Origin: Mobula hypostoma
Taxonomy: Eukaryota
Assembly: GCF_963921235.1 (NCBI RefSeq)
Contig: NC_086097.1
Coordinates: 43,278,001 to 43,342,000 of the forward strand
Reading direction: 5' to 3'
DNA: 64,000 bases
Below are positions 1 to 56,800 of the stretch, one piece after another. How positions within the stretch are numbered: position 1 is the first letter of the stretch; every line of letters begins with the position of its first letter. The notes under the pieces are model-generated. The model was not told the DNA's origin and made no database searches. It was given only the letters and a program-made list of their open reading frames with translations. Both the position numbers and the translations under genes were made by a program.

Positions 1-392
1 CGCTGATAGAATCGGAGAAAAAGGAGGATATTCGGCCCGTCGTATCCATTCCCGATTAAAATTTCAATTTAAACAGTCCCGTTTCTCCATCAGATCGTTA
101 TAAATTGTGCCAATCAAGTTCTCATTCAGTTTCCTTTCAGACAATAACTTCTTGACGTCTTTTTCAAATATCTTTACCAATTACCTTAAACCTGCACACT
201 ATTCTTACTAATGACAGTTCATTCATTTTCACTTGGCTTCTCAAGTGTAATTACAATTAAACAACCTCAGCCTTCACTGTCCTAAAGAAAACAATTTCTG
301 CTGAACCAGTCTTTAACACAACTAAACTTCAGTTTCTTCTCATACTTCCTCCATACCCTACTTTAGTGATATTACTTCCTTCCTAAAATATC

Positions 393-9004: not shown

Positions 9005-9420
9005 CATTACCGTCTAGGTAGTCTCCAGCCCATGAACATAGAATTCTCCAACTTCCGGTAATTCCTTCCCCCTCCCTTCCTCTATCCCTATTTCACTCTT
9101 CCCCCTCCCCCAGCTGCCTATCACCTCCCTCATGGTTCCGCCTCCTTCTACTACCCATTGTGTTTTCCCCTGCTGCTTCTTCACCTTTTCTGCCTATCAC
9201 CTCCCTGCTTCCCCTCCCCCAACCCTTTCCCCTTACTGGTTTTTCACCTGGAACCTACCAGCCTTCTCCTTCCCACCATCCCCCCACCTCCTTTATAGGG
9301 CCTCTGCCCCTTCCCTCTATAGTCCTGATGAAGGGTTCCGGCCCGAAATGTCGACCCATCATTTTCACGGATGCTGCCTGACCTGCTGAGTTCCTCCAGT
9401 GTGTTGTGAGTGTTACTTGA
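9005..9420 (+). mobile_element. Penelope-like element 3' end with hammerhead motif
   Basis: End of ORF (RLGSLQP..NIEFSNFR*), pyrimidine-rich UTR, agtcCTGATGAagggttccggcccGAAAtgtcgac, then tail gatgctgcctgacctgctgagttcctccag. Confidence 0.8.
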
Positions 9421-14800: not shown

Positions 14801-17800
14801 TATTAGTTTCAACATCAAACACATTACAAAAAGTAAATACAGAGTAATTGGGATTATACTAATTGATAATAATTATTGAAATTTACAGTCGGGTAACACA
14901 TAGTTAGAAACATCCCAAAATCACACAGATTAGCAACAAAATATATAAGGAGTATACATAAAATACAAAAATATCATTAAAAAACAGAAAAAGAAAAAAA
15001 AATCCCCTAAAAAAAAATCTACCCAAACTAAAGAAAATTAAGGAAAAAAAAAGAAAGGGCTATTTTGATACCTCAGATAGAACCAATAGTGTCAGTGTCG
15101 CTGCTTCTGCTCCTCTCCCCATATATTGAAATCACAAAATAGATTTGGCAAGGGTCAAATTACATCATGTGGAAGTATTGAATAAATGATCGCCAAGTCT
15201 CATCAAATTTACTAGATGAGTCAAAAATGACACATAATTTTTTCTAGATTTAAACAAGATATAGTTTGAGAGAACCAATGAAATGTAGTAGGATACACTC
15301 TCTCGCTCTCTCTCACTCTCTCTCGCACACTCTCACTATCCTCATTAAGCTATCTACTAGGCAACTTAATAAACATGTTACCACAGCAAATCTGGCTTGG
15401 CCCTATCAATGATATTTCCTTTGGCCTATCCATCCCTCCTGTACTTTCTTAACAATTTGAAATTAGACTAGGACTCTGATAATCTCACAGTTTAGGGATT
15501 TTGCTGTTGCCAGACTGGCATGTTGGATATTACTAATACTGGATTTTAATTCTTATTAATGAACGAACATATTTAATTTACCCTTTTTAGATGTAACACT
15601 GTAGTATAATAGATTTTCCAGTATACCAAGTGGGTTTAGGGGGAGGAGGGAAAGTGGGGGGGGTGCGGTCAATGAAGTACTGGTATGTTTTTTAAGGGAA
15701 TAGAGCTGTGGTATGTTTATAAGAAGTGCGTAAAAAGGTTTCTGTCTGTTTATAAGTAGCATGAGAATATGGTCCTGGTGTGTTTTATGAGGAGCAGGGA
15801 ATAGCCTCTGGTGTATTTATAAGGTGTGTGGTAATGGGACTCCTGTCACTTTGTAAGGACAATGGGAATGGGAGCCCAGTGAATTTAAGAGGAGTGTGGG
15901 AATGGCTTCTGAGTAGTGCACTCTTGGAGTTTTACTCTAACTTGTTTTCTCGCTTCTGCTGTTTTGACAAAGGGTCTCTGACATGAAATGTTAACTCTGT
16001 TTTACTGTCTATTGCATTAATATAGCAAGTTGGTTACTCCTTTCTGATTTAGTACAGTGGATTCCAGTTAGTCGGGACACAATGGGACCAGTACATTTTG
16101 ACCCAATTAAGTGGCAGTCCTAAGTTTCTTGGAAATGGTTAAGGATGTCTATTTTTTTCAAAAAGACAAATACTGCTTAACTGGGCAACAAATTATGTAT
16201 TTAGATGAAATGCAGAGCAAAGTTGAAAACTAGCAATACTACAGTACTATAAAACTATAGTTTTGCTTAATTAATGATGGAGGAATACATCCACTGTACG
16301 CTGCCGTGATGAAGAAAATCAGCGCAGACACATAGTATAGATAATAGACGGCCTTCATGCAATGCTTTCAATGATTGCATTCTCCGAATCTTCATTCTCA
16401 TTGTAACATTTGAGATGATTGTCGATACCTTCAAACTCTTTGTAGTCCCTAACTTGTTGAAGTAGTGAAATCATTTCATTTTCATTCATGGCCATTTCTA
16501 GCATCTCCAAGCCTGAATGCTTGAAACTGCAGTGATCAAAACAATTCCAAATTATCTTATTACTTATTTCTCACCAACTACCAGTTTCAGAACACAAACA
16601 CGTGACTGATGCTATTCAGAAACTTCACTCTAAGCACTGTATAGTGTTTGACGGCCACACAAATATACGCGACTGACACTAGTTAACAACTTTGGCAACG
16701 TTCTCCTGTCCAAATTAAATGGCATAATGTTCCAAATAAACAAAAGGAATCCTGGCAACGCACATCAAAGTTGCTAGTGAACGCAGCAGGCCAGGCAGCA
16801 TCTCTAGGAAGAGGTAAAGTCGACGTTTCGGGCGGAGACCCTTTGTCAGGACTAACTGAAAGAGGAGCTAGTAAGAGATTTGAAAGTGGGAGGGGGAGGG
16901 GGAGATCCAAAATGATAGGAGAAAACAGGAGGGGGAGGGATGGAGCCAAGAGCTGGACAGGTGATTGGCAAAAGGGATATGAGAGGATCATAGGGCAGGA
17001 GGTCCAGGGGGAGAGGGGGAAAAAACCCAGAGGATGGGCAAGGGGTATAGTGAGAGGGACAGAGGGATAAAAAGGAGAGAGAGAGAAAGAATGTGTGTAT
17101 ATAAATAATGGATGGGGTACAAGGGGGAGGTGGGGCATTAGCAGAAGTTTGAGGAGTCAATGTTCATGCCATCAGGTTGGAGGCTACCCAGACGGAATAT
17201 AAGATGTTGTTCCTCCAACCTGAGTGTGGCTTCATCTTTACAGTAGAGGAAGCCGTGGATAGACATATCAGAATGGGAATGGGACGTCTAATTAAAATGT
17301 GTGGCCACTGGGAGATCCTGCTTTCTCTGGCGGACAGAGCGTAGGTGTTCAGCGAAACGATCTCCCAGTCTGCGTCGGGTCTTGCCAATATATAGAAGGC
17401 CACATCGGGAGCACCAGACGCAGTATATCACCCCAGCCAACTCACAGGTGAATTGTTGCCTCACCTGGAAGGATTGTCTGGGGCCCTGAATGGTGGTAAG
17501 GGAGGAAGTGTAAGGGCATGTGTAGCACTTGTTCCGCTTACACGGATAAGTGCCAGGAGGGAGATCGGTGGGGAGGGATGGGGGAGACAAGTGGACAAGG
17601 GAGTTGCGTAGGGAGCGATCCCTGCGGAATGCAGAGGGGGCGGAGGGAAAGATGTGCTTAGTGGTGGGATCCCGTTGGAGGTGACAGAAGATACGGAGAA
17701 TAATACGTTGGACCCGGAGGCTGGTGGGGTGGTAGGTGAGGACAAGGGGAACCCTATTCCTAGTGGGGTGGCGGGAGGATGGAGTGAGAGCAGATGTGCG

Positions 17801-20800
17801 TGAAATGGGGGAGATGCGTTTGAGAGCAGAGTTGATGGTGGAGGAAGGGAAGTGCTTAGTGGTGGGATCCTGTTGGAGGTGGCGGAAGTTACGGGGAATA
17901 ATATGTTGGACCCGGAGGCTGGTGGGGTGGTAAGTGAGAACAAGGGGAACCCTGTTCCTAGTGGGGTGGCGGGAGGATGGAGTGAGAGCAGATGTGGGTG
18001 AAATTATATTTTGTTCTTTAAGAGTTGACCCAAAGAGGCCGCTGTCCCGATTAACCAATAGCCCAGTTAATCATACAAAGATCCTATGTGACCAACCTCT
18101 CCCTATAACTCCGGCCCTGTAGTCTAGGCAGCATACTCGTGAATTTCTTCTGCACTCTCTCCATTTTGACAATGTCTTTCCTTTAACAGGGTGACCAAAA
18201 CTGCACACAATACTCCAAGTACAACCTTGCCAATAACTTGTATAGTTGCAATAAAGCGCCCTGCTCCTTAACTAGCACGTCGATTGGGAAAATCAGATTG
18301 GTAATGGATCTCAAGAGAGTGAGTTTGTTGAACGCCTATGAGATGGCTTTTTAGAACAGTTTATCTTTGAGCCTACGAGGGGATCAGCTATGCTGGATTG
18401 GGTACCTGTATTTTGTAATGAACCGGACGCAATTAGGGAGCTTAAGGTAAAAGAGCCCTTAAGAGCCAGTGATCACAATGTGGCTGAGCTCAGCTTGAAA
18501 TTTGACAGGGAGAAAGTAAAGTCTGATGTAGTAGTGTCTCAGTGGAGTAAAGGAAATTACAGTGGTATGAGAGGGGAGTTGGCCAAAGTAAATTGGAAGG
18601 AGCTGCTGGTAGGGTTGACAGCAGAGCAGCAATCGTGTAAGTTTTGGTGGAAAAAGATGTATTCCGAAAACGAAGAAATACTTCAATGGCAAAATAGTAC
18701 AACCGTGGTTGACAAGGGAAGTCAAAGCTATCGTAAAAACAAAAGAGAAGTCATACAACAAAGCAAAATTAGCGGGAAGATAGACCATTGGGAAGGTTTT
18801 AAAAACCCCAACGAGCAACTAAATGAACCATTAGAAGGGAGAAGATGAAATATGAAAGCAAGCTAGCAAACAATATCAAAGTGGATAGTAAAAGCTTTTT
18901 CTTTTTTGTAATTTATTTTTTATTGAAGTTCATCATCAAACATTTCCACAAGATGTATTTCAGATACTGTACATATATATGTATTCATATTTGTCACAAA
19001 GCTCCACATAATATTTATCTGAAGTATACACTTATAGAAAGGAGAGGAAAGAAAGAACAATTGAAAGAAGAAAACTATGTACGAAGTAGGGAGTGATTTT
19101 TTTTTTCAACATATTCATTGACTTGTGAGAATAAAATCAGGGCTATGAGGAGTTATGTAGTTAAACCATTTTTCCCTGTATGAATCAAATTGTTCCAACT
19201 TACGATTAACAAATGCTGTTATCTTCTCCATTTTGTAAATGTCCATTGTAATTTCCATCCATACATTTAAAGTTGGGCTCTCCTGTGATAACCATTTCCT
19301 GGTAAGGGTCTTTTTACCAGCCACCAGCAGTATATTCATTAAATAGTTATCTCTTTTTCAACCATTCTTAAGGTATATACCCAAAATATATGGTCTTACA
19401 CATATATTTAAGGGTATTTCACATTTAAAGATGTCTTGTAGGGCATTATGTATCCCACTCCAATAGTCTTTGATAACAGGGCATTCCCAGAAAATATAAT
19501 GGTTTGCATTTTGATTTCCACAATTTCTCCAGCAAACAGGGAGGTTACTATCATAATGGAATTGCCGAGAGGGTGTAATAACATATCTTATCAAATTTTT
19601 CCACTCGAACTCCCTCCATTTCTGTGACCTGGTACACTTCCATTGATACCTCCATATTATTGTCCAGTCTTCCTCAGATATTATTATCCCTCCTTCCTTT
19701 TCCCATTTTGTTTTAATGTATGAAGTCGAATGTGTTTTAAGATTTGACAAACCTTTATACATGCTTGAAATGATTCTACTACCGTTGTCTGAATTATGTG
19801 CTTTTCTAAATAGCTCTATTATCAGACATGTACTTGCCTTGGTTACATTTTTAACCGTCCTATTAACATACGGTCGCATCTGTAAATACTGGCAAAAGTT
19901 TTGTTTTTCTAATAAGTGTTTCTCTTTGAGCATTTCAAAACTGAACAGTGTTCCTTCTTTCATTATATTGCAAGTAGCTGTTATTCCTTTAGCTGTCCAG
20001 TCCTTAATTCTAGCATCCAGTTTATTCGACGTAGAATCCAAGTCATATGCACACCATTTAAGAATTGCAATGTCTCTCTCTAGTTTATATTCTTTTATAA
20101 TAGTTTTCCATATTTTAAGAGTCCATTTCATCCACAGGTTATCAATGGTATTTATGTAACTTTGTAGGTTGTTATCAGCCAAAATTGCCTGTATGGGGAT
20201 GGAAAGTATCCTCTCCTTAATGTTTTTCCATTGAGTGTCATATGATGGGTTGTACCAGCATATCACAGCTCTCAACTGTGCTGCAAAATAATAATCTCTA
20301 ATAGAAGGTAGGCCCCATCCCCGCCCCCTTTTCCTTGGCTAATTGCAAAATTTTGAGATGAACTCTAGACCTTTTACCTTGCCATATATATCTTGATAGC
20401 ATCTTGTTCCAATCATTGAATTGATTTTGGTTAATCTCTATTGGTAGGGTCTGAAAGAGATATAACAGTCTGGGCAGTATCTTCATTTTAATAGATTCAA
20501 TCCTTGAATTGAGACCAAGAAAAGGAATTAGGTTCCATTTTGTTATATCTTCCTTAATTCTTTTTATATATAGGCTGATAATTGCATTCTGATAAATTTG
20601 CCAAATCTTTTGGCATAATGATGCCCAAATATTTGACAGACTCTGTTTGCCATGCCCAAGGATATCTACTTTCAATTTCTCTTGGTGGGCTATAGTTATA
20701 TGAAAGTAGTTGGGTTTTATCTATGTTGATCTTGTATCCTGATAATTGGCCATATTGTTCAAAGGATTGCATCAATTTAGGTTGCCCTAGACAGATCAAA

Positions 20801-23800
20801 ATGTCATCCACGTAACAGGCCAATTTATACTCTGTTGCTTTAATAGTAATTCCCCTGATATCTTCATTTTGTCTGATGTATTGAGCTAATGGTTCCAGAT
20901 ATAATGCGAAGAGTAGCGGTGACCATGCACAACCCTGTCTTGTGCCCCTTTCTAGGGTAAAACTATTTGATAAATATCCATTGATTTTAATCCTAGCAGT
21001 AGGATTGTCATATAGTGCCTGTATAGTTTTAATAATTGTGTCATATAGACCAAATCTATGTAAAACTCTGTAAAGAAAATTCCAATTAACCGAATCAAAT
21101 ACCTTTTCAGCATCCACGCTTATCACTATTGCTTCAATTTCATTTTCTTTTAATGTGATCCATAATGTGAAGTGTCCTTCGTATATTGTCTTGTGTTTGG
21201 CGTTGTTGTATAAAACCTGTCTGATCATTATGTATCAGTGTGGGTAGAAACTCTTCTAATCATTTGGCCATGATGGAGGTAAATTTTCTATAATCCATAT
21301 TAAGAACAGATAGTGGTCTAAATGACCCACATTCCATTTTATCCTTGGCTTTTTTCAGTATAGCTGAGATTATCGCCTCCTTCCAGCTGGGTGACATTTG
21401 CGCCTTTCTTAGGGCCCAGTTCAGTGTGGGGAATAAAACAGGAATTAACTCACTTCTAAATTCTTTATCCCACTCCGCCATATATCCATCTGATCCTGGT
21501 GACTTGCTTAATTTAAGCCTACTAATTGCAGTTTTTAGTTCAGCTTCAGTTATGTCAGCAGTCATTGTTCTTTTTTGTTCTTTGCTTAAAGTGGGTAACT
21601 CTAAAGAATTCAGGAAGGTGTCAATTTGGGTTATGCTTCCCCCGGAACTGTGGAATATAGAGTTTTGTAAAACATTTCAAAAGCTTCTTGAATTTCACTT
21701 AGCTTTTTTTTATCACTTTTGTTCTTGGATCCCTAATTCTATGAGCTGTATTTTCTGCTATCTTTTTTTTTCAGTTTCCACGCGAGTATTTTCATTGATT
21801 TAGATCCGGTTTCATCGTGTCTCTGTTTCAGAAACATTAAATTTTTCCTAATTTCTTGTGTAACCAAACTATTAATTTCATTCCTAATTTTTAAAATTTC
21901 CTCCAGTGTATCCTGTGCCAAACTCAATTTGTGTTTTTTTTCTGGTTCCTTCAGCTTATTTTGTAATTCCTCTAATGTTTTATTCCTTATTTTTTTCTTA
22001 TATGAAGATATCGCTATAATTTTCCCTCTTAAGACAGCCTTCAGAGTATCCCATAGAATGGGAGGTGAAACCTCTCCATTATCATTGAATTCTAAGTAAA
22101 GACCAATTTCTTTTTTAATTTGTTCCTTAAAATAAGGATCATTGAGTAGACTTGAATTTAGTTTCCAAATAGTATTCTTTGGTTGTCGGTCAAAATCAAA
22201 AGATAAATATATAGGTGCATGGTCACTTACATCTGTTGTCCCAATTCCACAGGTGATTATTTTGCCTTTATCTTTTCCAAATGTTATGAAATAGTCTATT
22301 CTTGTATATATGGAATGGGGTGAAGAATAATGAGTGTAATCCCTTCTGTCAGGGAAAAAGTCCCTCCATATATCAATTAGACAAACATCTTCAAAAAGAG
22401 TGTTAACTTTCTTGTGTAAGGACTTTGTTTCATAAGTTTTTCTATTGGAAGAGTCTAACTTTGGTTGTAATTCTAAATTTAAGTCTCCCCCACATATCAA
22501 GAGACCTTCTGTTTCCATTACCATAATATTAGTAATTTTCTGGAAGAAACTAATATCACTTCCTGGGGGTGCGTATATATTCAATAAAGTAACTGGATTT
22601 CCATCTGTATTCCCCCTTACCAGAATATATCTGCCCTCCTTATTTCCCATTTCGAATACTTTTTCAAAATTTAGCTTGCTTGAGCTGAGAATAGCAACTC
22701 CTCTTCTATGTCCTGATTTGTATGAAGAGAAGAACAAATTAGTGAAGCCCATTCTCTTTAATTTTCCATGCTCATTATCACTTAAGTGAGTTTCCTGTAA
22801 ATATACTACATGGGCTTGTTGTTTTTTCATTTTTAATAGAATTTTACTGTGTTTGATTGGACTCAACAGCCCATTGACATTAAAAGAAATGAATTTTACC
22901 TTGTCCTTAGCCATGTGTATTTATCTGTTAGTATATCATTGAAATTTGCAGAATATAACTTAATCGATCTACTCCCTGAACAAATAAGAGCCAAGAAATG
23001 CGAATAATAAAAAAAAAAGGTAACAAAGGTGTGATTCTAAGGCTGGGGTCTCTAGATGACCCTGGATTGAGCTAGAAAAAACATCTAGCTGTGGTGAATA
23101 GCCCCTCCTACCTGTGGGTTGAGGGCCCCCGTTGCAGTACCTATAAAAGTAAGTAAATAAAACTATGTCCATTTTACAGAAATGATTTCCCCGTGTATTC
23201 CTCCCATGTATATATTCTCACTTAGCTGGGGAAAAAGGAGTGAATGAATAAAAAAAATTGAGTAATATAAAATCCACATTATAATGCGTATTTCTCGAGA
23301 TAGGTGTATCACCGTCTATTTTTGCTTCCGTTTAGTTTATCAGCACTTTTAAAATTAGCCAAACCTTATGCTCTTCTGGAGGAGGTGAGAGCTGTCTTCG
23401 GAGAACTCACAGTCTCTTTGTAATATCCTTCTCTCGTCCTCCTCCCATCCCCTGCTTTCTCGGTTCTCTTACTATTTCCCAAACACATTGGGATGTCTGC
23501 TCAGCCAGGCTTTCCTTCGGTCTGACCACGCTAATGGGCAGCGCTCTGTTCTTCATGTCTGTAGTTGCCTCTTCCACCGTCTGATATAGCTGTATCCCTT
23601 CTTTGTAAAACACCCTCAGTTTAGCAGGGTTTGGAATTTAGTCTTTTCTTACTTTAATATTCGTTTCGCTTCGGAATATTTCTTCCATTTCTGTAGGACC
23701 ACCGGGGGATAATCTTGATCGAAGTATATGAACTTCCCATTCCAAAACACCCTCTTCTTACCCCAGGCCCTTCGTAGAATCTCCGCCTTGCTCTTGAATC

Positions 23801-26800
23801 GAAGGAATCTAATTACTATTGAATGCGGCTTACTTTCTCTGTCTCTGGAAGACCTTGGGACGAGCGCGCGATGCGTCCTCTCAATTTCAATTTCCACAGT
23901 CGGGGGAATCTCCAGCGCTTCCCACAGCAGCTTGTCTACAAAGTCCATCATCGACAATCCCTCTACTCCTTCGGGAACATTATAAAGCCTGATATTTTTC
24001 TGTCGCGATCTTCCCTCCTGGTCAAGCAATTTACTTTCCTGTTGATTTAATATTTTTATCGTCTTACTTAGTATCTGTTCCACGTTTTGCAGGCGATCTT
24101 CCACCTTCTCAATTCGTGTCTCTGCCATCGCTATTTTCTGATTGACGTTGGCGAGCTCTGACTTTATATCATTTAGTTGCTGTTTTATATCTTTTTGGAC
24201 TTCCCTTATCTCTTCCAGAATCTTTATCATATATGCCACTTCGCCTGAACGAGGCCCAGTGTCAGCTTCGCCGCCACGCGCTGCACCTCTCTCTTCTATA
24301 GGCTCCGCAGTGATGCTTCTTTTTAATCCCCATTCTTGCCCCCCTTATCAATTCAGATATTTTCGAAAGATCTTGTATTTGATGGATTAATGGGGCAAAA
24401 TATGCGTTTTTCCAGAGGAGCTATTGATTTAAGCTGCCATTCTGGATAATGACATTACCGGAACCAGAAAAAGCTTTTTCAAGTATGTAAAAAATAAAAG
24501 AGAGATGAGAGTGGATATAGGACCACTAGAAAATGAGGCCAGAGAAAAAATAATGGGGGACAAGGAGATAGCAGATGAACTAAATGAGTATTTTGCATCA
24601 GTCTTCACTGTGGAAGACATTAACAGTGTGCCAGATGTTGTAGTGTGTGAAGGAAGAGAAGTGAGTGCAGTTACTGTCACAAGGGAGAAGATGCTCAAAA
24701 AGTTGGAAGACCTAAAGGTACATAAGTTACCTGGACCAGATGAACTGCACCCTAGGGTTCTGAAAGAGGTAGTGGTCGAGATTGTGGTGGCATTAGCAAT
24801 GACCTTTCAAAAATCATTGCACTCTGGCTTGGAAGATGTTGGAGTCAATTGTTAAGGGTGAGGTTATGGAGTACTTGGTGACACAGAACAATATAGGACA
24901 AAGTCCTTAAGGGTTTGTCTTGCCTGACAAACCTGTTAGAATTCTTTGAGGAATTATAAGTAGGATAGATAAAGGATGCAGTGGATGTTATATATTTGGA
25001 CTTTCAGAAGGCCTTTGACAAGATGCCACACATGAGGCTGCTTACCAAGTTAAAAGGCCATGGTATTACAGGACAGTTACTAACATGGTTAGAGCATTGG
25101 CTGATTGGTAGGAGGCAGTGAGTGGGAGTAAAACGATCCTTGTCTGCTTGGCTACCAGTCGGTAGTGGTGTTCCTTCAGGGTCGGTGTTGTGACTGCTTT
25201 TTATGCTGTATATAAATGATTTAGATGATGAAATAGATAGCTCTGTTGTGAAGTTTGCAGATGATACGAAGATTCTTGGAGGGTAGGTAGTGTTGAGGAA
25301 ACAGGAAGGCTGCAGGAGGTCTTAGATTAGAAGAATGGACAAGAAAGTGGCAAATGAAATCCATCGTTGGAAAATGCATGGTTATGAGCTTTGGTAGTAG
25401 AAATAAATGTGCAGACTATTTTCTAAAAGGGGAGAAAATCCAAAAATCTGAGCTGCAAAGAGACTTGGGAGCCCTTGTGCAGAACACCCTAAAGGTTAAC
25501 TTGCAGGTTGAGTCAGTGTTGAGGAAGGCAAATGCCATGTTAGTATTCATTTCAAGAGGTTTTGAATACAAGAGCAGGGATGTGATGCTAAGGCTTTGTA
25601 AGGCACTGGTGAGGCAGCACCTTGAGGATTGTGAACAGTTTTGGGCTCCACATCTAAGAAAAGATGTGCTGGCTTTGGAGAGGGTCCAGAGGCGGTTCAC
25701 AAGGATGATTCTGGGAATGAAAGGGTTATCATACAAGGAACATTTGATGGCTCTGGGTCTGTACTCACTGGAATTTAGAAGGATGGGGAGGAGATCTCAT
25801 TAAAACCTTTCAAATGTCGAAAGGCCTAGACAGAGTAGATGTGGAAAGGATGTTTTCCATGGTGGAGGAGTCTAGGACAAGGGGGCACAGTCTCAGGACT
25901 GAGGGGCATCTATTTCAAACAGAGATGCAGGGAAATTTCTTTATCTAGAGGGTGGTGAATTTGTTAGCTCCGGCAGCTGTGGAGGCCAGGTCATTGGGTG
26001 TATTTAAGGCAGAGATTGATAGGTTCTGGATTGGACACAGCATCAAAGGTTACAGGGAGAAGGCTGGGGAATGGTGTTGAGGAGGGGCAAAAAAGGATCA
26101 GCCATGATCAAATTGCCAAATTGTGCTCCTACGTCTTATGGTCTACAGATCTCCTTAATGTTAAGGCCAGCATGCAAACACTTTCTTCACCACCCTATCT
26201 ACTTCTGCTTTCTACTTTCAGTGAAAATTGCACATGTCCCTTTGTTCCACGACACTTGTCAGTGCCCTGCCAGTCACTGAATTTACAAGTCCTACCTTGT
26301 TTTGACTGTCCAAAATGCATCACTTATCTAAGTTGATGTTCATTTGCTTCACTATAAATAAAACATCTTAATTTTGTGTCATAAGAAAATTGTTAATCAT
26401 GCCATGTCAATTCATAACTAAATCATTTACGTACTGTAAAAAGTATTCACCCCGCCCCCCCGCCATTGTTTTCATGTTTTATTGTTTTACAACATTGAAT
26501 CACAGTGGATTTAATTTGGCTTTTTTTTGACACTGATCAACAGAAAACAGATCTCTACAAAGTGATCTAAATTTATTACAAATATAAAGCACAAAATAAT
26601 TAATTGTGAATTGGAGAAAATCTGCAGTTGTTGGAGATCCCAGCAACATGCAGAAAATGCTGGAGGAACTCCGCAGGTCAGGGAGCATCTTTAGTAAAAG
26701 AGCACAGTCAACATTTCGGGCTGAGACTGCAGTAATTGTTTGCACAAGTACTCACTTCCTTCAAGTCAGTATTTAGTAGATGCACCTTTGGCGCAATTAC

Positions 26801-44800: not shown

Positions 44801-47800
44801 CAAACTGTGCGAATGCAAATATAAATAAATAGCAATAAATAAGGAACATGAAATAATAAGATAAAGAGTCCTTAAAGTGAGACAGTTGGTTGTGGGAACA
44901 CCAGAAGTAGAATGAGTGTAGTATCTAATCCAGTAGAATATCTGACAACCAATTTCCTAGCTAGGGAGACTTGCAAGATTGAGGTCAACCACTGGGATTC
45001 CACAGTGAGTTCAGCACTGGACTGTATTAAGATACCAGCAATTGATAAGTAAGTTCAGAAATTCCATGTTTGACTACCTACTCATGCATGGAAATTTTGG
45101 ACTTGCTAACATTTTCCAGCAAAATATGAATTTTTATAAATTATTGAACCATGTTGAGTTAATGGTTATTTGAAAGGATTAGCTTCAGAATTATATTACT
45201 GAATGTAACCTATGACAAATTTTCTTAAATTTCTTTGATATGCTCATAAAAATGTTTTGTTCATACCTTCATTGTATTTTTAGAACTGTTGTTTTAGTAT
45301 TTACAGGGACTAATGATCAATAGTACACTAATTGAAAAATTACTAGAAAATTATAAATATAAGAGAGACTTGGAATGGAAATCACCCTCTCCCCCTTCTT
45401 TTCGGAGATGGATGGCTGACATGATCTCAGTCATACAGATGGAGAGACTTAGGTTCTTGAGAACCAATACAATTAAAAAATTTTTTGCTATCTGGGATCC
45501 ATTTCTTCCCTACCTAGATGAGGCCGGGGGCAGACGAATAATTTCCCCCCAGCTGATTTCTCACTAAAAAGTTTAGTACTTTTGAGCACTTTGTACAATA
45601 GGCATCCCTCTAATGTTATGTTCCTTTTTTTTCCTTATTTTTACATATGTCTGAGCTTATATGTTCTTGTTGATTTCATTGTTTTTTGATAATTTTGAAA
45701 ATAAAGTATTAAAAAAAGAAAGTCATGTTCATTCCATTAGATTATGAAATCTTTTTATTTGATACAGAAATGGAATTTTTCACCGAGATGTAAAACCTGA
45801 AAATATCCTAATTAAGGTATGTTACTTGTACAGTTTTTCAATCACTCAGAAGAATGCTAGTTCATATCAACAATTTTCTAATGCAGAAATTAGCTAATTT
45901 TAGTTATGTTATTAATGCAAAGTGCTCTTGCTACTGACTGACAAGTATAAGAATTCTGGATAAAAACAATAGACTGTAAGTACTCAATAGGTCAAGTAAC
46001 AAATGTGCAAATAGAAATGAGCTGTCTTTCAGGTCAATGACCTTTCATCTGACCTAATCCTTCAATTTCTTGTGTTTATTTCTTATTTCTAGTGTTTGAA
46101 TCTTTTTTGCTATTAAAGTAGAAAATCCACATTGATTTACCATAAAATTAACACCACACAGTAGATGGAAGGTTACTGTATATCTGATTGAAATGTACTT
46201 GACTTGGAAGTGACCAAAATGGAAACTATTTATTTGGCAACTGATGCAACACACACAACATGATGAAGGAACTCAGCAGATCAGGGAGCATCCATGGAGG
46301 GATATAAACTGTTGACGTTTTGGACCAAGATCCTTCATCAGGACTGATAAGAAAGGGGGCAAAAGCTAGAATAAAATGGTGATGAAAGGGAAAAAACATG
46401 AGCTGGCAGTTAATAGATGAATACAGGTGGGAGGTGGAAGGTAGGTAGTTGGGGGAGGGTAAAGTGAGAATGATGTGAAAAGCTGGGAGGTGATAGATTG
46501 AAAAGGCAAAGGCCTGAGGAACATAGAATCTGATAGGTCAGTAGACCGTGGACTAGAAGGAAGGAGGTAGGAACTAGAAGGAGGAGGGTGTGGATGATGG
46601 ACAGGTTGTGAGGGTAGTAGGGGAAAAAGAGAATGGGTAAAGGCCAAAGGAATAAGGAAAAACAAAGGTGCAATGGGGGTGGGGGTGGGGGGGGGGCGGA
46701 GAACAGAGAAGAGTGGTTACTGAAAGTTAGAGAAATCAATGTTTTTGTTGTCAGGCTGGAGACTACCAAGACAGAATATGAGGTGTTGTTCCATTAAGGT
46801 ATGTTGAGCCTCAACTTGGCAGTAGAGTAGAGCACAGATTGGGGGAAATCACTTCATTGAGCAGCTTCACTCTGTCTGCTATAACAGCCAAGCTCTCCTG
46901 GCGGTCAGACACTTTATTGCCATTTTACATTCCCACTTGTCTGTCAGTTCTATTCTTCTAGCATTTTGTGTGTGTTGCTCTAGATTTACATAAGAACCTA
47001 AAAACATAAGAAATACGAGCAGGAATAGGCCATCTGGCTTGCCAAATACAGCATCAGCAGTCCCCCTTTTGTCTCTGTTTGGCACCTGGTGTTCATTGGC
47101 TTCTCTAGCACAATTAACAGCATTATATTTCTGGAAAATTTATAACATATGACATGTAGAGCACATATAGCCCTCTGCAATTAGATCACGTCCTAAAACT
47201 GGATAAAGAGAACCTGATTAAATAAATAACACAACAAAACATTATATTTGTTTACCTATTTATTGAAAAAATGATCCAATATTACATGTATTTGTTGGAA
47301 AAAGTATGTGCTTTCAGTAAGCGGTGTGATCCCCTTATACAGCAATAACTTCAACCAAACATTTCTGGTAACTTGATCAGTCCTGCACATTAGCTTGGAG
47401 GAATTTTGAGCCATTCCTCCTTAGAAAACTGCTTCAGCTCTGAGTTGTTGGTGGGCTCCCTTGCAAGAACTGCTTGCTTCAGGTCCTTCCACAACATTTC
47501 TATAGGATTAAGGTCAAGACTCTTGACTCAGCCATTCGAAAACACAAATTTTCTTTTTAAACCATTCTTGTTGACTTACTCTTGTCTTTCGGATCATTGT
47601 TTTGTTGCGTTATCCAACTTCTATTAGGTGATGGACTGCTACCCTGATATTCTCCTGTAAAAACTTGGAATACAATTTTGAATTCATTGTTTCCTCTATG
47701 ATTGCAAGTTGTCCAGGCCCCTGAGACAACAAAACAGCCCCAAATCATGATGCTCCTTCCACCATGCTTCACAGTTTGGATGAGGTTTTGGTGTTGATGT

Positions 47801-50800
47801 GCAGTGCCCGTTTTTCCTCCAAACATAGCAGCGTGCATTTCTGCCAAAAGGTTCATTTTTTTGTTTTATCTGTCCACAGAACATTGTCCCAGAGGCATTG
47901 TGGATCATCCAGGTGGTCTTGCAAACTTGAGGCGTGCAGCAATGATTTTTTTTTGGAGAGTAGTGGTTTCTTCCGTGGTGTCCTTCCATGTACAGTATGC
48001 TTGTTCAGTGTTTTTCTTATAGTGGACATATAAGCAAGAGACTTTAGCAAGTTCTAGAGCTTTTGCTATTACTTTTTCATCGCCTTCAGCATTGCATGTT
48101 GTGCTGTTGGTGTGATCTTTGCAGGATGCCCATTCCTATGGAGAGTAGCAGCAGTATTGAGTCTCCTTTATTTGTACACAGTTTTTCCATTTGGGCTGAT
48201 GAAAACTCAGGTCTTTAGAAATGCTTTTGTAGCCTTTTCCAGCATCATGGATCTTTACAATTCTTCAATGGTCCTGTGAAAGTTATTTTGATCAAGGCAT
48301 GGTGCACATAAACAGGTCTTTCTTGAGAAGAGCAGGCTCTGCCAGTAACCTGACTTCGTGTGTCTTTTTTATAGGGCAGGCCACCTCTACAACCCACACT
48401 TCCAATCTCATCTCATTAAAAGGAACACCTGACTCCAAGTAGCTTTTGTAGAAGGCATTACCCCAGAAGATCACGTACTTTTTCCAACAAAAATGTTGGA
48501 TCATTTTTCTCAATAGATAAATGAACAAGTATAATTTTTTGTGTTATTTATTTAATTGGGTTCTTTATCTAGTTTTAGGACTTGCATGAAGATCTGATCA
48601 CAGTTTTGGTCATATTTATGCAGAAATGGAGAAAATTCTACAGAATTCTTAAACTTTCTAGCACCACTGTATATCTCTTGGTACAAGATAATACTTGGTA
48701 TCCTCTTATATTTTGGCTAACTTATCTTCATATTTTATCTTTTCTCTCCTTATGGCTTTTTAGTTACCTTCTGTTGGTTTTTAAAAGTTCCGCAATCCTC
48801 TACCTTTCCACTATGTTTTTGCTATATTATATGCCCTCTCTTTTACTTGTGCTGTCTTTGACTTCCCTTGTCAGCCTTAGTTGCCTTGTCCTCCCTTTAG
48901 AATACATCTTCATCTTTGGGGATGTATCGATCCTGCGCCTGCTGAATTGACTCCAGAAATCCCAGCCATCCCTGATGGTGTCCTCTTCCAATCAAGGCTG
49001 TCATGCCTCTGTAATTCCCTTTACTCCGCAGTAATACGTGATACATCTGACTTTCTCCCTCTCAAACTGCAGGGTGAATTGTTCCTTATTATGATTACTA
49101 TCTGTGCTTTTCTGCTGAACAGGTTATTTTTACAGCTGTAAATGTTAACAAGAATGTTTTCTAAATTATTAACAATGTTTTGCATTAGATACCTTTCAGA
49201 AATTAAGATACTTTAAAATGTTATCAATATTTTTGAGGTACAGAATTTAAAACCTTCAAGGTGATTGGCTGCTGGTGGAAGCAATCTCCCTATATTGTTC
49301 ACAGATTACTAACAACCTATAAAAATGGGAATTTTTGAAATTCCTGAATTCATTTGTCTTTGAATGTTCTTCAGATGAGTTGACACTGGCCATGATTGTA
49401 TCTTGATATCTTGTTGCTGACTAGAACATCAGAAAAGTTTATTTGTTCATGAAAAGGTGAAATGTATTTTTGCGAGAGTCATGCAAGTTTATATTGGCAC
49501 TGTTAGTATGCATTATTTTTTCAGGTACCTTGTGCTTGAGCTGTTAGGATTAACACTAACCTTTTAACCAATTTTAACATTCTAACAAAATGAAGTATAT
49601 AAAATTTCTGGAATCCTACATGAAAGTTGAAACTAATCTCTGTCAACTTATGTCATGTCTCCACCTCTTAAAGAAACAGTGAATATTGAATTCAGCTGCT
49701 TTTCAATTCCATTGTACCAGAGAAAGATTTGACAAAAACAATGAAGCACTACCAAGAAACAGCACATCACCACTGGTGACTTTGAAATCCCAATGGAAGA
49801 TCTGGACGTTGTAACAGAGTTCCTGAAACTTATGAAGTAACCAAAAGTTGAAATAAAGCTGCAGTAAGAGGAGTTGCTCAGAGAGAGAAATGCTTGAATG
49901 TTACCCTAGGAATAGGCCCTGTGCAAGAAAATAAAATCAACTCACAAATTGGCTGAGTATAAGAGGAGATGGTAATAAATGCCAGCTATAAACAACTAAC
50001 TACTGCCCTAAACATATACCACTATGCCTATTTTCACTTGCACATCTGATAATTCGTACACAAAACTCACATTTACACCTCATTTCCAGAATGCAACCAT
50101 GACATCATAATCTACTGACATTTGTGCAATGTATGTGTAATGGTCTTCATTTCCTCTTGTAGGAGATGTTAGCAGCAGATCTATAGTACCCACAGGTTCA
50201 GCTCATTGGAAGAAAAGCAACCCATTATCACGAGCCTGGCATTCACTGTGAGTGAAGAATATGCAACCAGATTATATTGTTGTCATGCCTCTGAGATTGT
50301 TACCTCACAGTCATTGGGGGGGTATCTTGGAGGTAGGATCTTCATGTGGTGAGCTATATGCAAGCTTCCTAGGTGGCAGAGTTCCAGAAGACTTGAACGG
50401 GACAGCCAATGGATGAAGGCTGATGAACATGTAAATAGAGATGCTTTGGACAGCCTGAAAGCCTGTATAAGATGACAAGGGGTATAGGGGAACTGCAGTT
50501 TCACCTTCTCCACTGTTCTGTGTGGAATATGGAGACTACCTTTTCCAATTTGGAAGTGAAGTTAGCTTTATGTCAGTATTTATGGACTTGGCTATAGGCA
50601 TTGTTGGCTGGCAGAGGTTACATATTCTCTGCAGCACATACAAAATATATCTACTTTGGAAAGTTGGAGTCCTGCCTTCATAGTTTGGACTTCATTGAAG
50701 AGAGAAGCTCTAAAGGTGAGACAGCTCTCCAACAAACTGTCCTCGGATTGTTTGGATAACCAATATCCCAGGAGATAGCATGACACCATGGAATACAAAT

Positions 50801-53800
50801 TGGCTGTCTCAGATTGATTGAGTGCTTTCTCCAACACTGCATCTCTGACAGTCTTGTCACAGTTGCTCATTAGACACCTAGACCAGATTGGTGAGAACGC
50901 ATAGTCTAAATATGAGACCGAGAATTTATTTTGGAAAATATAAGAATAATAGCAAAGATTCTAAATGATAATTTTGTACTGGGATTCATGCTAGGAGACA
51001 TTAAAAACATTCATACAGCAGTATATAGTCAAAAGGCTATAGGGATGGTGAAGTAAATCTTTTGCTAGATAAAAAAGGTGCTAGGTAAACAAGTGTGGCT
51101 GAAGTCTAACAGGTTCCCTGGATATGATGGCCTACATCCTACAACGTCTAAAGAAGTGCCTGCAGAGGAGGTGGAAGTATTGGCTATAATCTAGCAAAAA
51201 TACCAGGATTCTGAGAGGTCCTAAAGGACCAGAAAAAGCAAATACAATACCATCTGCACATTGATGAGGGCTTCTCGATTGGAGCTGAAACGTCTGCAAA
51301 CATTTTGCCAAGCTCGGCGATCAGCCAAGTTTCCAAATAGTCAATCCGGGCTACCAATATTCTGCACCTTCAACTGCGCGCTGATGACAGCTGCTGGATT
51401 GAAGCCGAAACGTCTGCAAACATTTTGCCAAGCTCGGTGATCAGCCAAGTTTCCAAATAGCCCATCTGAGCTACCAATATTCTGCACCTTCAACTGCGCA
51501 CTGATGATGGCTGCTCAATGGGAGCTGAAACGTCTGCAAACATTTTGCCAAGCTCAGCAATCAGTCAAACTTCCAAATAGCCAACCTGAGCTACCAATAT
51601 TCTGTAATATTTCAATCAATACCACTGTTCAAGAAAGGAGGGTGACAGAAAATAGGCCGGTTAGTCTAAAATCAGTTGCAACTTATTCTCTCACATGGCC
51701 ATCAATTGATGTTTGAGTATTGCTAGCATTTCTTGTTTATCCTGAAATACTATTTGAAGTGCTTCCATTGGGAACCTGACATTACCTCTATGGGAAATGT
51801 TTCAGCATAGTAAATGAGTAAGGACAGAAGAGGGCATTATAGAGTTGTGGCTGAAAGAAAATTACAGTTGGGAGCCAAACATTAGACCATAAGATGATAT
51901 GAAGATAGATGGATGGACAGGTAGTGTTGAGGAAGCAGAGAGGCTGCAGAATAACTTGGACCGGTTTGGAGAATGGGCAAAGAAGTGTTAGATAGAATAC
52001 AGTGTTGAGATGTGTATTGTCGTGCACTTTGGTAGAAGAAATAAAAACATAAACTATTTTCTAAATGGAAAAAAAATTCAAAAATCTGAGGTACAGAGAT
52101 ACTTGGGAGTCTTTCGTACAGGATTCTCTAAAGGTGAACTTGCAGGTTGAGTTGGTGGTAAGGAAAGCAGATGCAGTGTTAGCATTCATTTCGAGAGGAC
52201 TAAAATATAAAAGCAAGGATGAAGTGCTAAGACTTTATAAGATATTGGTCAGACTACACTTGGAGTACAGTGAGTAGTTTTGAGCTCCTTATCTAAGAAA
52301 AGATGTGCTGGCGTTGGAGAGGGTCCAGAGGAGGTTCACAAGAATTATTCTGGGAAACATACGGTATGAAGAGCATTCGATGACTCTGGACCTGCACCCA
52401 CTGGAGTTTAGAATGAGGAGAGAACTTATTGAAGATTGAAGGGTCTGGAGAGAGTGGATGTGTGGAGGATGTTTCCTGTGGTGGGGGAGTCTAGGAGCAA
52501 TGGACACAGCCTCAGAATGGAGGGATGTTCATTTAGAACAGAGACGAGGTGGAATTCCCTTAGCCAGAGGATAGTGTATCTGTGGAATTCATTGCCACAG
52601 ACATTTGTGGAGGCCAAGTCATTGAGTATATTTAAGGCAGAGGTTGATAGATTCCTGATTAATCAGTACATGAAGGGTTATTGGAAGAAGGCAGGAGATT
52701 GAGGTTGAGAGGGAAATGGATCAGTCATGATGAAACAGTGGAGCAGACTCAATGGGCCATATGGCCTAATTCTGGTCCTATATCTTATGGTCTTATAAGA
52801 ATGACTCTTGCAGAACACCACTAGTCACCATCAGCTAACCAGAAAAGACCCTAATTTATTCCCACTCTATGCCTTCTGCTGGTCAGCCAATCTTCTATCC
52901 ATGCTAGTACCTTTCCTGTAAGACCATGAGCTCTTGTTACGCAGCCTCATGTGGGCACTTTGTCAAAGGCCTTCTGAAAATCTAAGTAGACAACATTCAC
53001 TGACTCTCCTTTGTGTCATCTTGCCTGTTATTTCCTCAAAGAACTCCTAAAAATCTGTTAGGCAAGATTTTCCCTTAAGGAAGCCATGCTGACTGACCTA
53101 TTTTATCATGTGCCTTCCATACCCAAAAACCTCATCCTTAATAATAGACTCCATCTTCCTAACCTCTGAAGACAGATTAACTGACCTATAATTTCATTTC
53201 TTCTGCCTCCCTTCCTTTCTAGAGAGTGGAATGACATTTTTAATTATCCATTCCTCTGGAAACTTTCCAGAATCTAGTGATTGTTGAAAGATCATGACCA
53301 ATGCCACCACAATCTCTTCAGCTACCTCTTTCAGAAAGAACCCTGGGGTGTAGTCCATCTGGTCCAGGTAACTTATCTACCTTCAGATCTTTCAGCTTCC
53401 CAAGCACCTTCTCCTTATTAGTAGCAACTACATTCACTTCTCTCCCTTGACACTCTTGAATTTCTGTCATATTGCTAGTGTCTTCCACAGTGATGACTGA
53501 TGCAAAATATTTAAGTTCCTCAACCATTTATTGTCCCCCCCCCACTACCTCTCCAGCATCATTTTCCAGCAGTCCAATATCCACTCTCACTTCTCTTTCA
53601 CTCTATATATCTGAAAAAACTTTTGCTATCCTCTTTTATATTATTGGCTAGCTTACCTTTATATTTCTTTTTTTTCCCCTATGGCTTTTTAAATTGCACT
53701 CTCTTAGTTTTTAAAAGCTTCCAAATCCTCTAATTTCCCACTTGGATTTGCACCCAGGGCACACATCCTCATGAAAAGATGGAATGGGGTGGCTCTTTTG

Positions 53801-56800
53801 GTTGAAACAGTGAAATTGCATTCTTGCAAGAGGTAACATAGGATCAGAAGATCTAGAATACTTATGGTAGAGTTAAGAAAAATTTCTGATAGGAGTAATA
53901 CACAGGGCTCTGAATTATAGCCAGGATATGGGGTACAAATAACAAAAGGTGAATGAGATGGGATGGAAAAAAAGATAATGTTTTTGTGTTCGTGGAGGAC
54001 TTTAATATGCAGGTAGATTGGGAAAATCAGTTTGGCATTGGACATGATATAACTTTTTTAGAGGAGCTTATAGTTGAGCCCACTAGGGAAAAAGCAATTC
54101 TGGATTTGTACAATGAACGAGATTTGATTAGGGAGCTTAAGATAAAGGAATCCTTAGGAAGCAGTGATCATAATATGATCGTATTCACTCTACAGTTTAA
54201 GAGAGGGAAGCTAAAATTGGCTCCATTTCCAAGGAAGGGTATGCTGGCACTGGAACTTTATGAGAATGATTCCAGGGATGAGAGAAAAAACTTGAGTAAC
54301 ATTTGATGGCTTTGGGCATGTACTTACTAGAATTAGGGGAGTGGGGAAGGCGTATAATCTCATGGAAACCTACCAAATATTGAATGGTCTGGATAGAATG
54401 GATGTTCTCACAAGTGTGAGAGTCTAGGACCAGAAGGCATAGCCTCAGAATAGAAGGATGTCCCTTTAGAATAGAGATGAGGAGGATTGTAGCCAGAGTG
54501 TGGTGAATCTGTGGAATTCTTTGCCTCACAATTGTGGAGGTAAAGTCATTGGGTATTATTTACAGCAAAGTTTATGGGGAGGATGCAGGAGAAGGGGATT
54601 GAGAGGGAAAAATAAATCAGCCATGATCCAATAGGGGAGCAGACACACTGGGCCGAATGGCCTGATTTTCTATCTTATGACAATGAAATGAAAGCCTTGA
54701 TGTCAAATTAAGGAAAGATATACCTCAACAGTAAGCCCAAATTGCCTTTCTGCTATTGTCACCATTTTTCTGAAATCTTTCCACTATAGTGGCTAAAATG
54801 TGATAGGCATAGCAAACTTTGCACGTACAGTATCCAAATAAGAAGAAGAAATAAGGCTGCAGAGATTGACCCTGCTGCAGCTATGTGCTTTCTTCTGCAA
54901 GGCCCACTCTCAGTGTTAAATGCAGAAATATGAATCAGTTTTATAGAAGAGATGTACATTGCGGATTAATAATATTCCAGTGCTCTCTTCAAGCTTCATA
55001 TGTGTGTGTATTACTCAAGGGATTTTGTAAAGGTTGTCATGTTCAGAAAACCAGCTTTCATGTTACTAGATAGCTATCTTTGTGGAATTCTGAGTGAGAT
55101 TATCTTTATAAATTGTCAACTCTTATTTGTTGACCCTTCTTCCAACCACTACCTATGAAACCAAGGAAATTAACATAAACAAATGAAGTGTGCGCTAAGA
55201 TTCTTCTCCAAAACTGATTTCTAAAGCAGTATTTTTTTGTTTATGAAGGTGATATTGAAAACTGCTTCATGTTTTAAAAATACTGGATTTACTGTTGCAG
55301 CAAAACTTGCTGAAGTTGGCAGATTTTGGTTCCTGCAGGAGTATGTTCTCAAAGCAGCCATATACAGAATATATTTCCACCCGATGGTATCGAGCCCCAG
55401 AATGCCTACTTACTGATGGGTACTACAGCTTCAAAATGGACATCTGGAGCACAGGCTGTGTTTTCTTTGAAATAACCAGGTGACTTTCAAACTTTTTAGT
55501 CCTGATGCATAACCATCATTAATGGAAAAACATTAGTATTTTTGAACCATTTGATATCTCAGAACGGTGGTAGAACTAGTGAACCAATAGAGTATTAGAA
55601 TGGTCAACTTTAATTCTAAATTTTAACATGTTGTGGCTGTACCTCTACGCAGCTAAATACCAAAGTTCAGTAAAAATTCACCAACCAAAAGTTATAGTAT
55701 TATTAATATGTAACACTAAAATAATGAGATCTATCATAAGTAGGTTACAGGTATTTCAGTGGAGTGCACACTTCATGCTCAGAATTTCAGATTATATGTG
55801 ATGTAAATATAGTTTATTTTGTTTCTTCTCAAATGACGTTGTCAGGCATGATTTCGTTGAATGCACTCTCATTCCAAAGTGGAAAATTTGAATATTGAGG
55901 ATATATTCCAGAGGCTAGTAGACAAAAATCTACAATAGGTTGATTGTTAATGCACAAAATGAATGAATATCATTTCCATGATATTATTTTGAAAGAGACT
56001 GTCCTCGTAAATATTATTCAGTCAACATCACAAACAAAAAAAAAAATCAGCTGGTCATTATTTAACTATTGTTTGGGGAACCTTCCTGTATGCAATTTGT
56101 CCATCATATTTCCTACATTACAAATGTAAGCCTTCATAAAACCTTTGGTAATGGTAACCATATAAATCCCGATTTCCTTTATTTGAGGAAGCAGCCATGG
56201 AACAGAAAAAAATAATTTGACTCAAGAAGAACCCCGTTCATGGTTTGTTTTCCATCTGTGCGGGAAGATTATTAAAAAATCGCAATTCTTTTAGTGAAAC
56301 TGCAAACTCAAAAAACCCCAAAATTATAATAATAAATAAGCAATAAAATTGAAAGCATGAGTTGAGGAGTCCTTGAAAGTGAGTCCAAAGTTTGTGGGAT
56401 CAGTGTTGAAGTTATCCCCTCTGATTTAACAGCCTGATAGCTGAGGGGTAGTAGCTGTTTCTGAACATGGTGGTGTGGGACCTGAGGCTCATGTACCTCC
56501 TTCCTGATGGCAGTAGTAAGAAAAAGCATGGTATGGATGGTGGGGTCCTTGGTAGTGGATGCTGCTTTCCTGCAACAGCACTTCCGAAAGATGTGCTCAA
56601 TGGTGTAGAGGGCTTTACCTGTGATGGCCTGGGCTGACCCACTACTCTTTATGGGCTTTTTCATTCAAGAGCATTGCTGTTTCCATACCAGACTATGATG
56701 TAACCAATCAGTATACTCTCCACCATGCATCTGTAGAATTTGTCAAAGTTTTAGATGACATGCCTAATTATTGCAAACTTTCTTAAGCATTGTACTATTT

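Follow-up and report, generated by a model that had tools for sequence, protein, structure and literature searches.

A tandem array of hammerhead-bearing Penelope/Poseidon-type pLTR ends in a protein-kinase intron of Mobula hypostoma

Introduction

Minimal hammerhead ribozymes occur in the Poseidon pLTRs of fish, mostly singly or in opposite-strand pairs, according to the available text of Cervera and De la Pena 2014 (PMC4209133). In PAc, the Poseidon element of Anolis carolinensis, the accessible sections of Frangieh et al. 2024 (PMC11167929) describe a ribozyme that cleaves only with protein, and a reverse transcription that starts internally, at two sites bounding a 30-40 nt tail. In the part of PMC8557442 drawn on here, Penelope-like elements (PLEs) are generally marked by partial tandem copies, inverted copies and tails, and a zinc-finger-like linker between reverse transcriptase (RT) and endonuclease (EN) is assigned to Neptune and Nematis. 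Finally, Li et al. propose, in the portion available of 10.64898/2026.07.22.740005, that retrozymes are born from pLTRs via local tandem amplification.

A sequence-only reading of 64,000 nt of Mobula hypostoma DNA (this whole stretch is called the window) had described a retrozyme-like array of three 120-nt units at 51253..51616, each unit with a minimal hammerhead, and had suggested that it might be an undescribed family. Here we show that the array is built from the terminal pLTR of a Penelope/Poseidon-type retroelement with many copies in the genome.

Results

Structure of the array and its host intron

Repeat detection in the window returned 2.9 tandem copies with a period of 120 and 87% matches at 51254-51604, which bears out the period and the place that had been read from the letters. 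The array spans 51254-51615, and its units lie head to tail, each with a minimal hammerhead-like core. The core boxes are present and the GUC ends fall at 51294, 51414 and 51534, as had been said; the proposed minimal type I anatomy also holds, the palindrome ACGU being found in every unit. The 5' strand of stem I had been given as GCA, which is correct for unit 3 only (unit 1 has ACA and unit 2 GCG), and the suggested ancestral stem II, GGCUCC, is not that of the family, which has GGCUUC/GGAGCC with U at position 20 in 68/71 copies.

All features of the array lie on the plus strand. Unit 1 (51254-51366) is a 5'-truncated pLTR end covering family positions +1 to +113; its core carries C3U, stem II has 6/6 pairs and stem I 2/3, and the putative cleavage is after 51294. 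Junction 1 follows (51367-51373), where family positions -6 to 0 (CCTTCAA) are joined to the tail at +113 through a 2-nt CA microhomology. Unit 2, which we read as a hybrid, occupies 51374-51493 together with junction 2 (51487-51493); its core is complete, stem II retains 4/6 pairs, the base pair and one further pair being lost, and the putative cleavage is after 51414. Unit 3 (51494-51615) is a pLTR end with the whole family tail, +1 to +122, and has a complete core, 5/6 stem II pairs (with a G-U base pair and a G-G mismatch) and a putative cleavage after 51534.

A relaxed minimal-hammerhead descriptor found four sites in the window, namely the three units and one at 9325, whereas 40 doublet shuffles gave 0.025 sites on average and never more than one. 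The CTGATGA..GAAAC pattern by itself was weak, its two window matches being equalled in 9/100 shuffles, and an Rfam scan of the window gave no hammerhead up to E=10, with three chance matches only. The site at 9322-9355 (+) is a second decayed minimal-hammerhead-like motif, whose stems I and II differ from those of the array units; it had no DNA match to the array's family and probably belongs to another Penelope family.

The array sits in a protein-kinase gene on the plus strand (45768..55478 for kinase exons and host intron, limits approximate), whose exon at 55304 matches Pfam Pkinase with E=5.9e-16; an ESM Atlas search with the kinase exon returned 'protein kinase' only. From the human exon structure, we take the gene to be MOK and the intron to be intron 6. 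Upstream of the array is the HRD exon (near 45.8 kb) and downstream of it the DFG exon (near 55.3 kb); the sense orientation claimed for the array is confirmed. Two simple patterns gave no strong splice-site match within the array. A sequencing run presumed to be RNA contained other family copies and one exact intronic flank contig, with no junction-spanning contig among those listed, a result that speaks neither for nor against expression of the array.

The parent family

A 25-letter core pattern had at least 242 genome matches at up to 2 mismatches and none with the reversed control, genome copy numbers being lower bounds throughout. Non-self matches to the array each spanned about one unit and at most 140 nt (best 40 of 661 candidates), and family copies had variable 5' starts and a sharp 3' end. 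Other copies extend upstream, by at most about 1.8 kb, into RT and GIY-YIG-like frames, and colinear pieces of RT followed by a C-terminal GIY-YIG were found in decayed family copies. The RT piece shares 57% identity with protein P0004 (824 aa; E=2e-86). The C-terminal piece matched ten longer proteins at E<=1e-10, seven of which carry RVT_1 and three of which are named GIY-YIG proteins, and an ESM Atlas search gave a score of 0.95 to HTH_animal/GIY-YIG clusters. On the decayed copies, Pfam matches to RT and GIY-YIG were below the curated cut-offs (GIY-YIG E about 0.01-0.02), and a PDB search with the RT piece retrieved nothing relevant.

The pLTR hammerhead of the family overlaps the start of the ORF. 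In unit 3, the first 36 codons of a Penelope-type ORF run from an ATG at the foot of stem II (51507-51614, +), and this frame aligns to residues 7-35 of P0004 with 13/29 identities, ungapped and in register (E=3e-5 in a single comparison). Since the frame that opens at stem II aligns without a gap to the N-terminus of P0004, the unit consists of a hammerhead and an ORF start. Our search for longer 5' sequence ended at the start of the RT region and found no full-length copy joining the pLTR to the entire ORF. By eye, the zinc-finger-like linker between RT and EN is absent from the family translations, whereas an unrelated PLE in L064 has a CxxxxCxxC linker. A literature search on Poseidon in sharks and hammerhead PLEs in elasmobranchs, with Repbase, Dfam and subscription journals outside its scope, found no paper on the family.

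The named close protein relatives P0004, P0008 and P0009 are from flukes (50-61% identity) and are about as close as, or closer than, a shark relative, P0007 (50%). The read-through C-terminal tail of P0007 has, at the protein level, residues compatible with the hammerhead core boxes in another frame.

The sequence-only reading had kept the unit apart from the window's other Penelope tails, and rightly so, since it belongs to a different Penelope family from them. Fragments of another Penelope-like element lie at 17288-18070 on the minus strand (GIY-YIG E=0.00075), and pieces related to these occur around 36.4-37.0 kb and 40.3-40.6 kb; the ORF pieces of the array family gave no tblastn match to the 17288-18070 fragments. 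A long L1-like LINE relic occupies 19358-24344, also on the minus strand, with pieces of a Transposase_22-like ORF1, Exo_endo_phos (E=4e-11) and RVT_1 (E=7e-25).

Ends and arrangement of family copies

The 3' ends of 71 copies, drawn from 52/56 loci, fell at +82..87 in 26 cases, at +120..123 in 38 (+123 being the end of the reference used) and elsewhere in 7; in an ORF-selected subset (n=30) the corresponding numbers were 16, 11 and 3. The two end classes are about 38 nt apart, which matches the published PLE 'tail'. Among 57 distinct loci of 3-3.5 kb each, 29 had a single copy, 23 an inverted pair, 4 no motif and 1 a direct tandem, which is the window array itself. Duplicate or enlarged loci (L031, L034, L054, L061-L070) had been removed before these counts, as had L001 for the family statistics. 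A direct pair 448 nt apart in L070 was rejected as a second tandem, being a local duplication that includes flank. L014 and L015 (G000:C75) share about 1.4 kb of flank, which indicates a segmental duplication and excludes independent insertions. A survey of target duplications at 38 loci yielded mostly matches of 7-8 nt, attainable by chance, and is given no weight here.

We then consider whether the array is a member of a true small non-LTR retrozyme family, whose 120-nt monomers, released by dimeric hammerheads, would form circles and return to the genome as multimers through a Penelope RT. The tandem units do carry type I cores, and units 2 and 3 might satisfy the definition of Li et al., two consecutive complete motifs; the available portion of that study (10.64898/2026.07.22.740005) counts pLTR-derived families of 51-972 bp, including in one chondrichthyan. 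However, in genome searches the head-to-tail junction was seen at no other locus among the candidates scored, no non-self match spanning it in the best 40 of 179 candidates. The exact gap pattern of the junction had three matches, the array, L068 and L069, the last two of which were rejected as further junction loci because each is an unrelated chance repeat. Dispersal of the 120-nt monomer as a family of its own was likewise not seen among the candidates scored. The sequence-only reading had itself named, as speaking against an undescribed retrozyme family, much of what was found, above all a unit that is the end of a Penelope-like element, and that claim is not supported.

Origin of the array

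An 8-bp target duplication, CAATACCA, frames the whole array. Its left copy (51245-51252, +) lies within an old LINE fragment, presumably CR1-like, and its right copy is at 51617-51624 (+); the two flanks read as one LINE frame, interrupted by the insertion. The presence of CAATACCA on either side, together with this single interrupted frame, indicates one insertion. At both junctions +113 is joined to -6 via the CA microhomology, unit 1 begins at +1 and unit 3 reaches +122, and from this arrangement junction 1 is best read as a template switch at insertion.

The distribution of rare non-CpG variants bears on how three units arose. Three of them (positions 76, 77 and 92) are common to units 1 and 2, and a single one (position 20) to units 2 and 3, a degree of sharing reached by 0.7% of 9842 random family triples. 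Such sharing fits gene conversion, or else a later duplication whose breakpoint fell between positions 21 and 75. Over the 5' half, unit 2 matches unit 3 at 42/50 positions and unit 1 matches unit 3 at 44/50; since unit 2 is no nearer to unit 3 overall, the hybrid reading of its 5' half depends on one site. The tail bases +114..+122 end unit 3, and a 120-nt circle would lack them. To judge from these letters, the evidence points to the insertion of a dimer followed by duplication at the DNA level, rather than to rolling-circle copying or three passes round one circle. A variant pattern that is not star-like and a terminal tail missing from the repeat unit add to the junction survey in making a dispersing retrozyme family most improbable.

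We conclude that the array is very probably what remains of an old Penelope/Poseidon-type insertion, heavily truncated at its 5' end, that was reduced to its pLTR ends and duplicated locally, its hammerhead decaying neutrally. The RT and GIY-YIG endonuclease of the element would have cut the LINE relic in the intron, giving rise to the 8-bp duplication, and element RNA would have been copied from the distal start (+122) to -6. After the presumed template switch, +113 to +1 would have been copied in the same orientation, yielding a partial tandem dimer, and a later unequal crossover or slippage would have duplicated one 120-bp period, giving the middle, hybrid unit. The hammerhead would be the ordinary pLTR motif over the ORF start, subject to neutral decay afterwards. 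The place of the unit in the family, the two end classes, the scarcity of tandems, the distribution of variants and the lesions are observed directly, whereas we infer that templates were switched, that the events came in this order and that this copy is inactive.

The array is present in three other organisms besides its source, so that it is old and no assembly error. In organism B, contigs with 1-2 differences run across both junctions, and organisms C and D each have, among the contigs listed, one across the second junction. That of organism C carries three unit-1 letters, again among the contigs listed, and one unit may, from its sequence, have been lost or converted there. An assembly artefact inflating a single copy has on its side only the general risk at tandem repeats; with units that differ by 12-14%, and already refuted by the contigs of organism B, it has a negligible chance of being right.

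Sequence conservation and predicted activity

Identity to the family majority over the 71 copies was 92.7% in the core, 92.0% in the stems and 92.6% at other non-CpG sites, with 65.9% at CpG sites. Thus, the excess conservation of the core across genomic copies to which the sequence-only reading had looked is absent, core, stems and flanks being about equal. The complete hammerhead motif, with the core CUGANGA/GAAA/NUH, helix II, a palindromic helix III and a short helix I, is kept in one of the 71 copies (L016); the family majority also has it, and the array units have it in part. Stem covariation was not seen either, with almost no two-sided changes in the 71 copies and 0/9 pairs in an alignment of nine sequences. 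Such absence is expected from neutrally decaying copies of one master and is uninformative on the activity of the master; equal conservation, on the sequences compared, is likewise what neutral decay of dead copies would leave and no argument against an active master.

For the array itself, the earlier warning of a possibly inactive copy was supported, lesions being found in all three enzyme halves, and the array folded no better than shuffled sequences (z=0.39). In contrast, unit positions 34-62 (29 nt) are identical in the three units (p=0.006, rising to 0.014 once the ascertained core is taken into account), and GAAACGUC is kept in all three units versus 7/71 family copies. This invariance counts against plain neutral decay and is unexplained, but it would be much less surprising if the units had been homogenised, since two of the seven copies with positions 34-41 intact are intact through 62. 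Within this stretch, positions 43-55 (51296-51308 and its repeats) form a family-wide 5-bp hairpin right after the cut site, which in predicted folds sequesters the 3' strand of stem I and could, in such models, be a built-in off state.

These data bear on the idea that the array had the same origin and was then kept or co-opted, its units pairing as a dimeric hammerhead that cuts the kinase pre-mRNA, so tuning output or releasing 120-nt RNAs. The sense orientation of the array to the kinase gene, its presence in three other organisms and the inclusion of the cleavage site in the invariant 29 nt speak for this. However, of the 25 variable sites, 11 fall in the enzyme half (positions 1-33), among them C3U in unit 1 and those that break stem II pairing in units 2 and 3, organism B has an extra stem II change at 51390, and most of the invariant positions (45-62) lie outside the ribozyme. 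Moreover, the constrained dimer folds of the array were 22.8 and 27.3 kcal/mol above the minimum, versus 12.3 for the family majority, in a model that ignores Mg2+ and tertiary contacts, and the minimal PLE hammerheads published so far are, in the sections available of PMC4209133 and PMC11167929, weak or dependent on PLE protein. Co-option is accordingly quite unlikely. We give similarly little credence to a bolder version, in which a retrozyme would have been caught as it arose: a Poseidon pLTR end would have become a 120-nt tandem in the kinase intron, been retained by four or more related organisms with no change at its cleavage sites, and would cut the pre-mRNA in trans between units (for instance with the unit 3 core acting on unit 1 or unit 2), possibly with the help of protein.

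Discussion

As found, the locus matters little, being one further decayed pLTR insertion. It is nonetheless a natural example of the Poseidon layout, with a hammerhead over the ORF start and a tail from two RT start points, and of a pLTR tandem born locally; motif pipelines may count such non-spreading arrays as retrozymes. Cleavage of the host pre-mRNA by the trimer, if it took place, would make this a rare instance of a vertebrate gene acted on by a PLE ribozyme.

The array family resembles the metazoan PLE minimal hammerheads, as the available text of PMC4209133 describes them, in its loopless palindromic helix III, the extra base before a long helix II, the short helix I and the G10.1-C11.1 pair, as well as in occurring mostly as truncated single copies and as pairs on opposite strands with 100-700 bp between them. 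It is unlike them in its stem II of 6 bp and in the direct 120-nt trimer, which is rare in its own family (1/57 loci). General PLE traits are also seen in it, namely 5' truncation, inverted partial copies (23/57 loci) and an optional tail (two end classes).

The likeness to PAc, as far as the accessible sections of PMC11167929 go, is one of published layout, between an intact, assayed element and a decayed family. In both, the ORF starts at stem II, with the cut site 26 nt on in PAc and 28 nt on in the array family. Both have two end classes, separated by a tail of 30-40 nt in PAc and about 38 nt here, and the distal end lies 111-118 nt into the ORF in PAc and about 107-109 nt in the array family.

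With the metazoan non-LTR retrozymes, in the portions used of Cervera and De la Pena 2020 (PMC7229834) and 10.64898/2026.07.22.740005, the array shares head-to-tail units that each have a type I hammerhead. Classical retrozymes differ, according to the same part of PMC7229834, in having canonical hammerheads, multicopy repeats of 150-450 bp and abundant circular RNA, whereas the motif of the array is minimal and the sets tested hold the array at one locus. The local tandem birth from a pLTR set out in the available text of 10.64898/2026.07.22.740005 fits the array locus.
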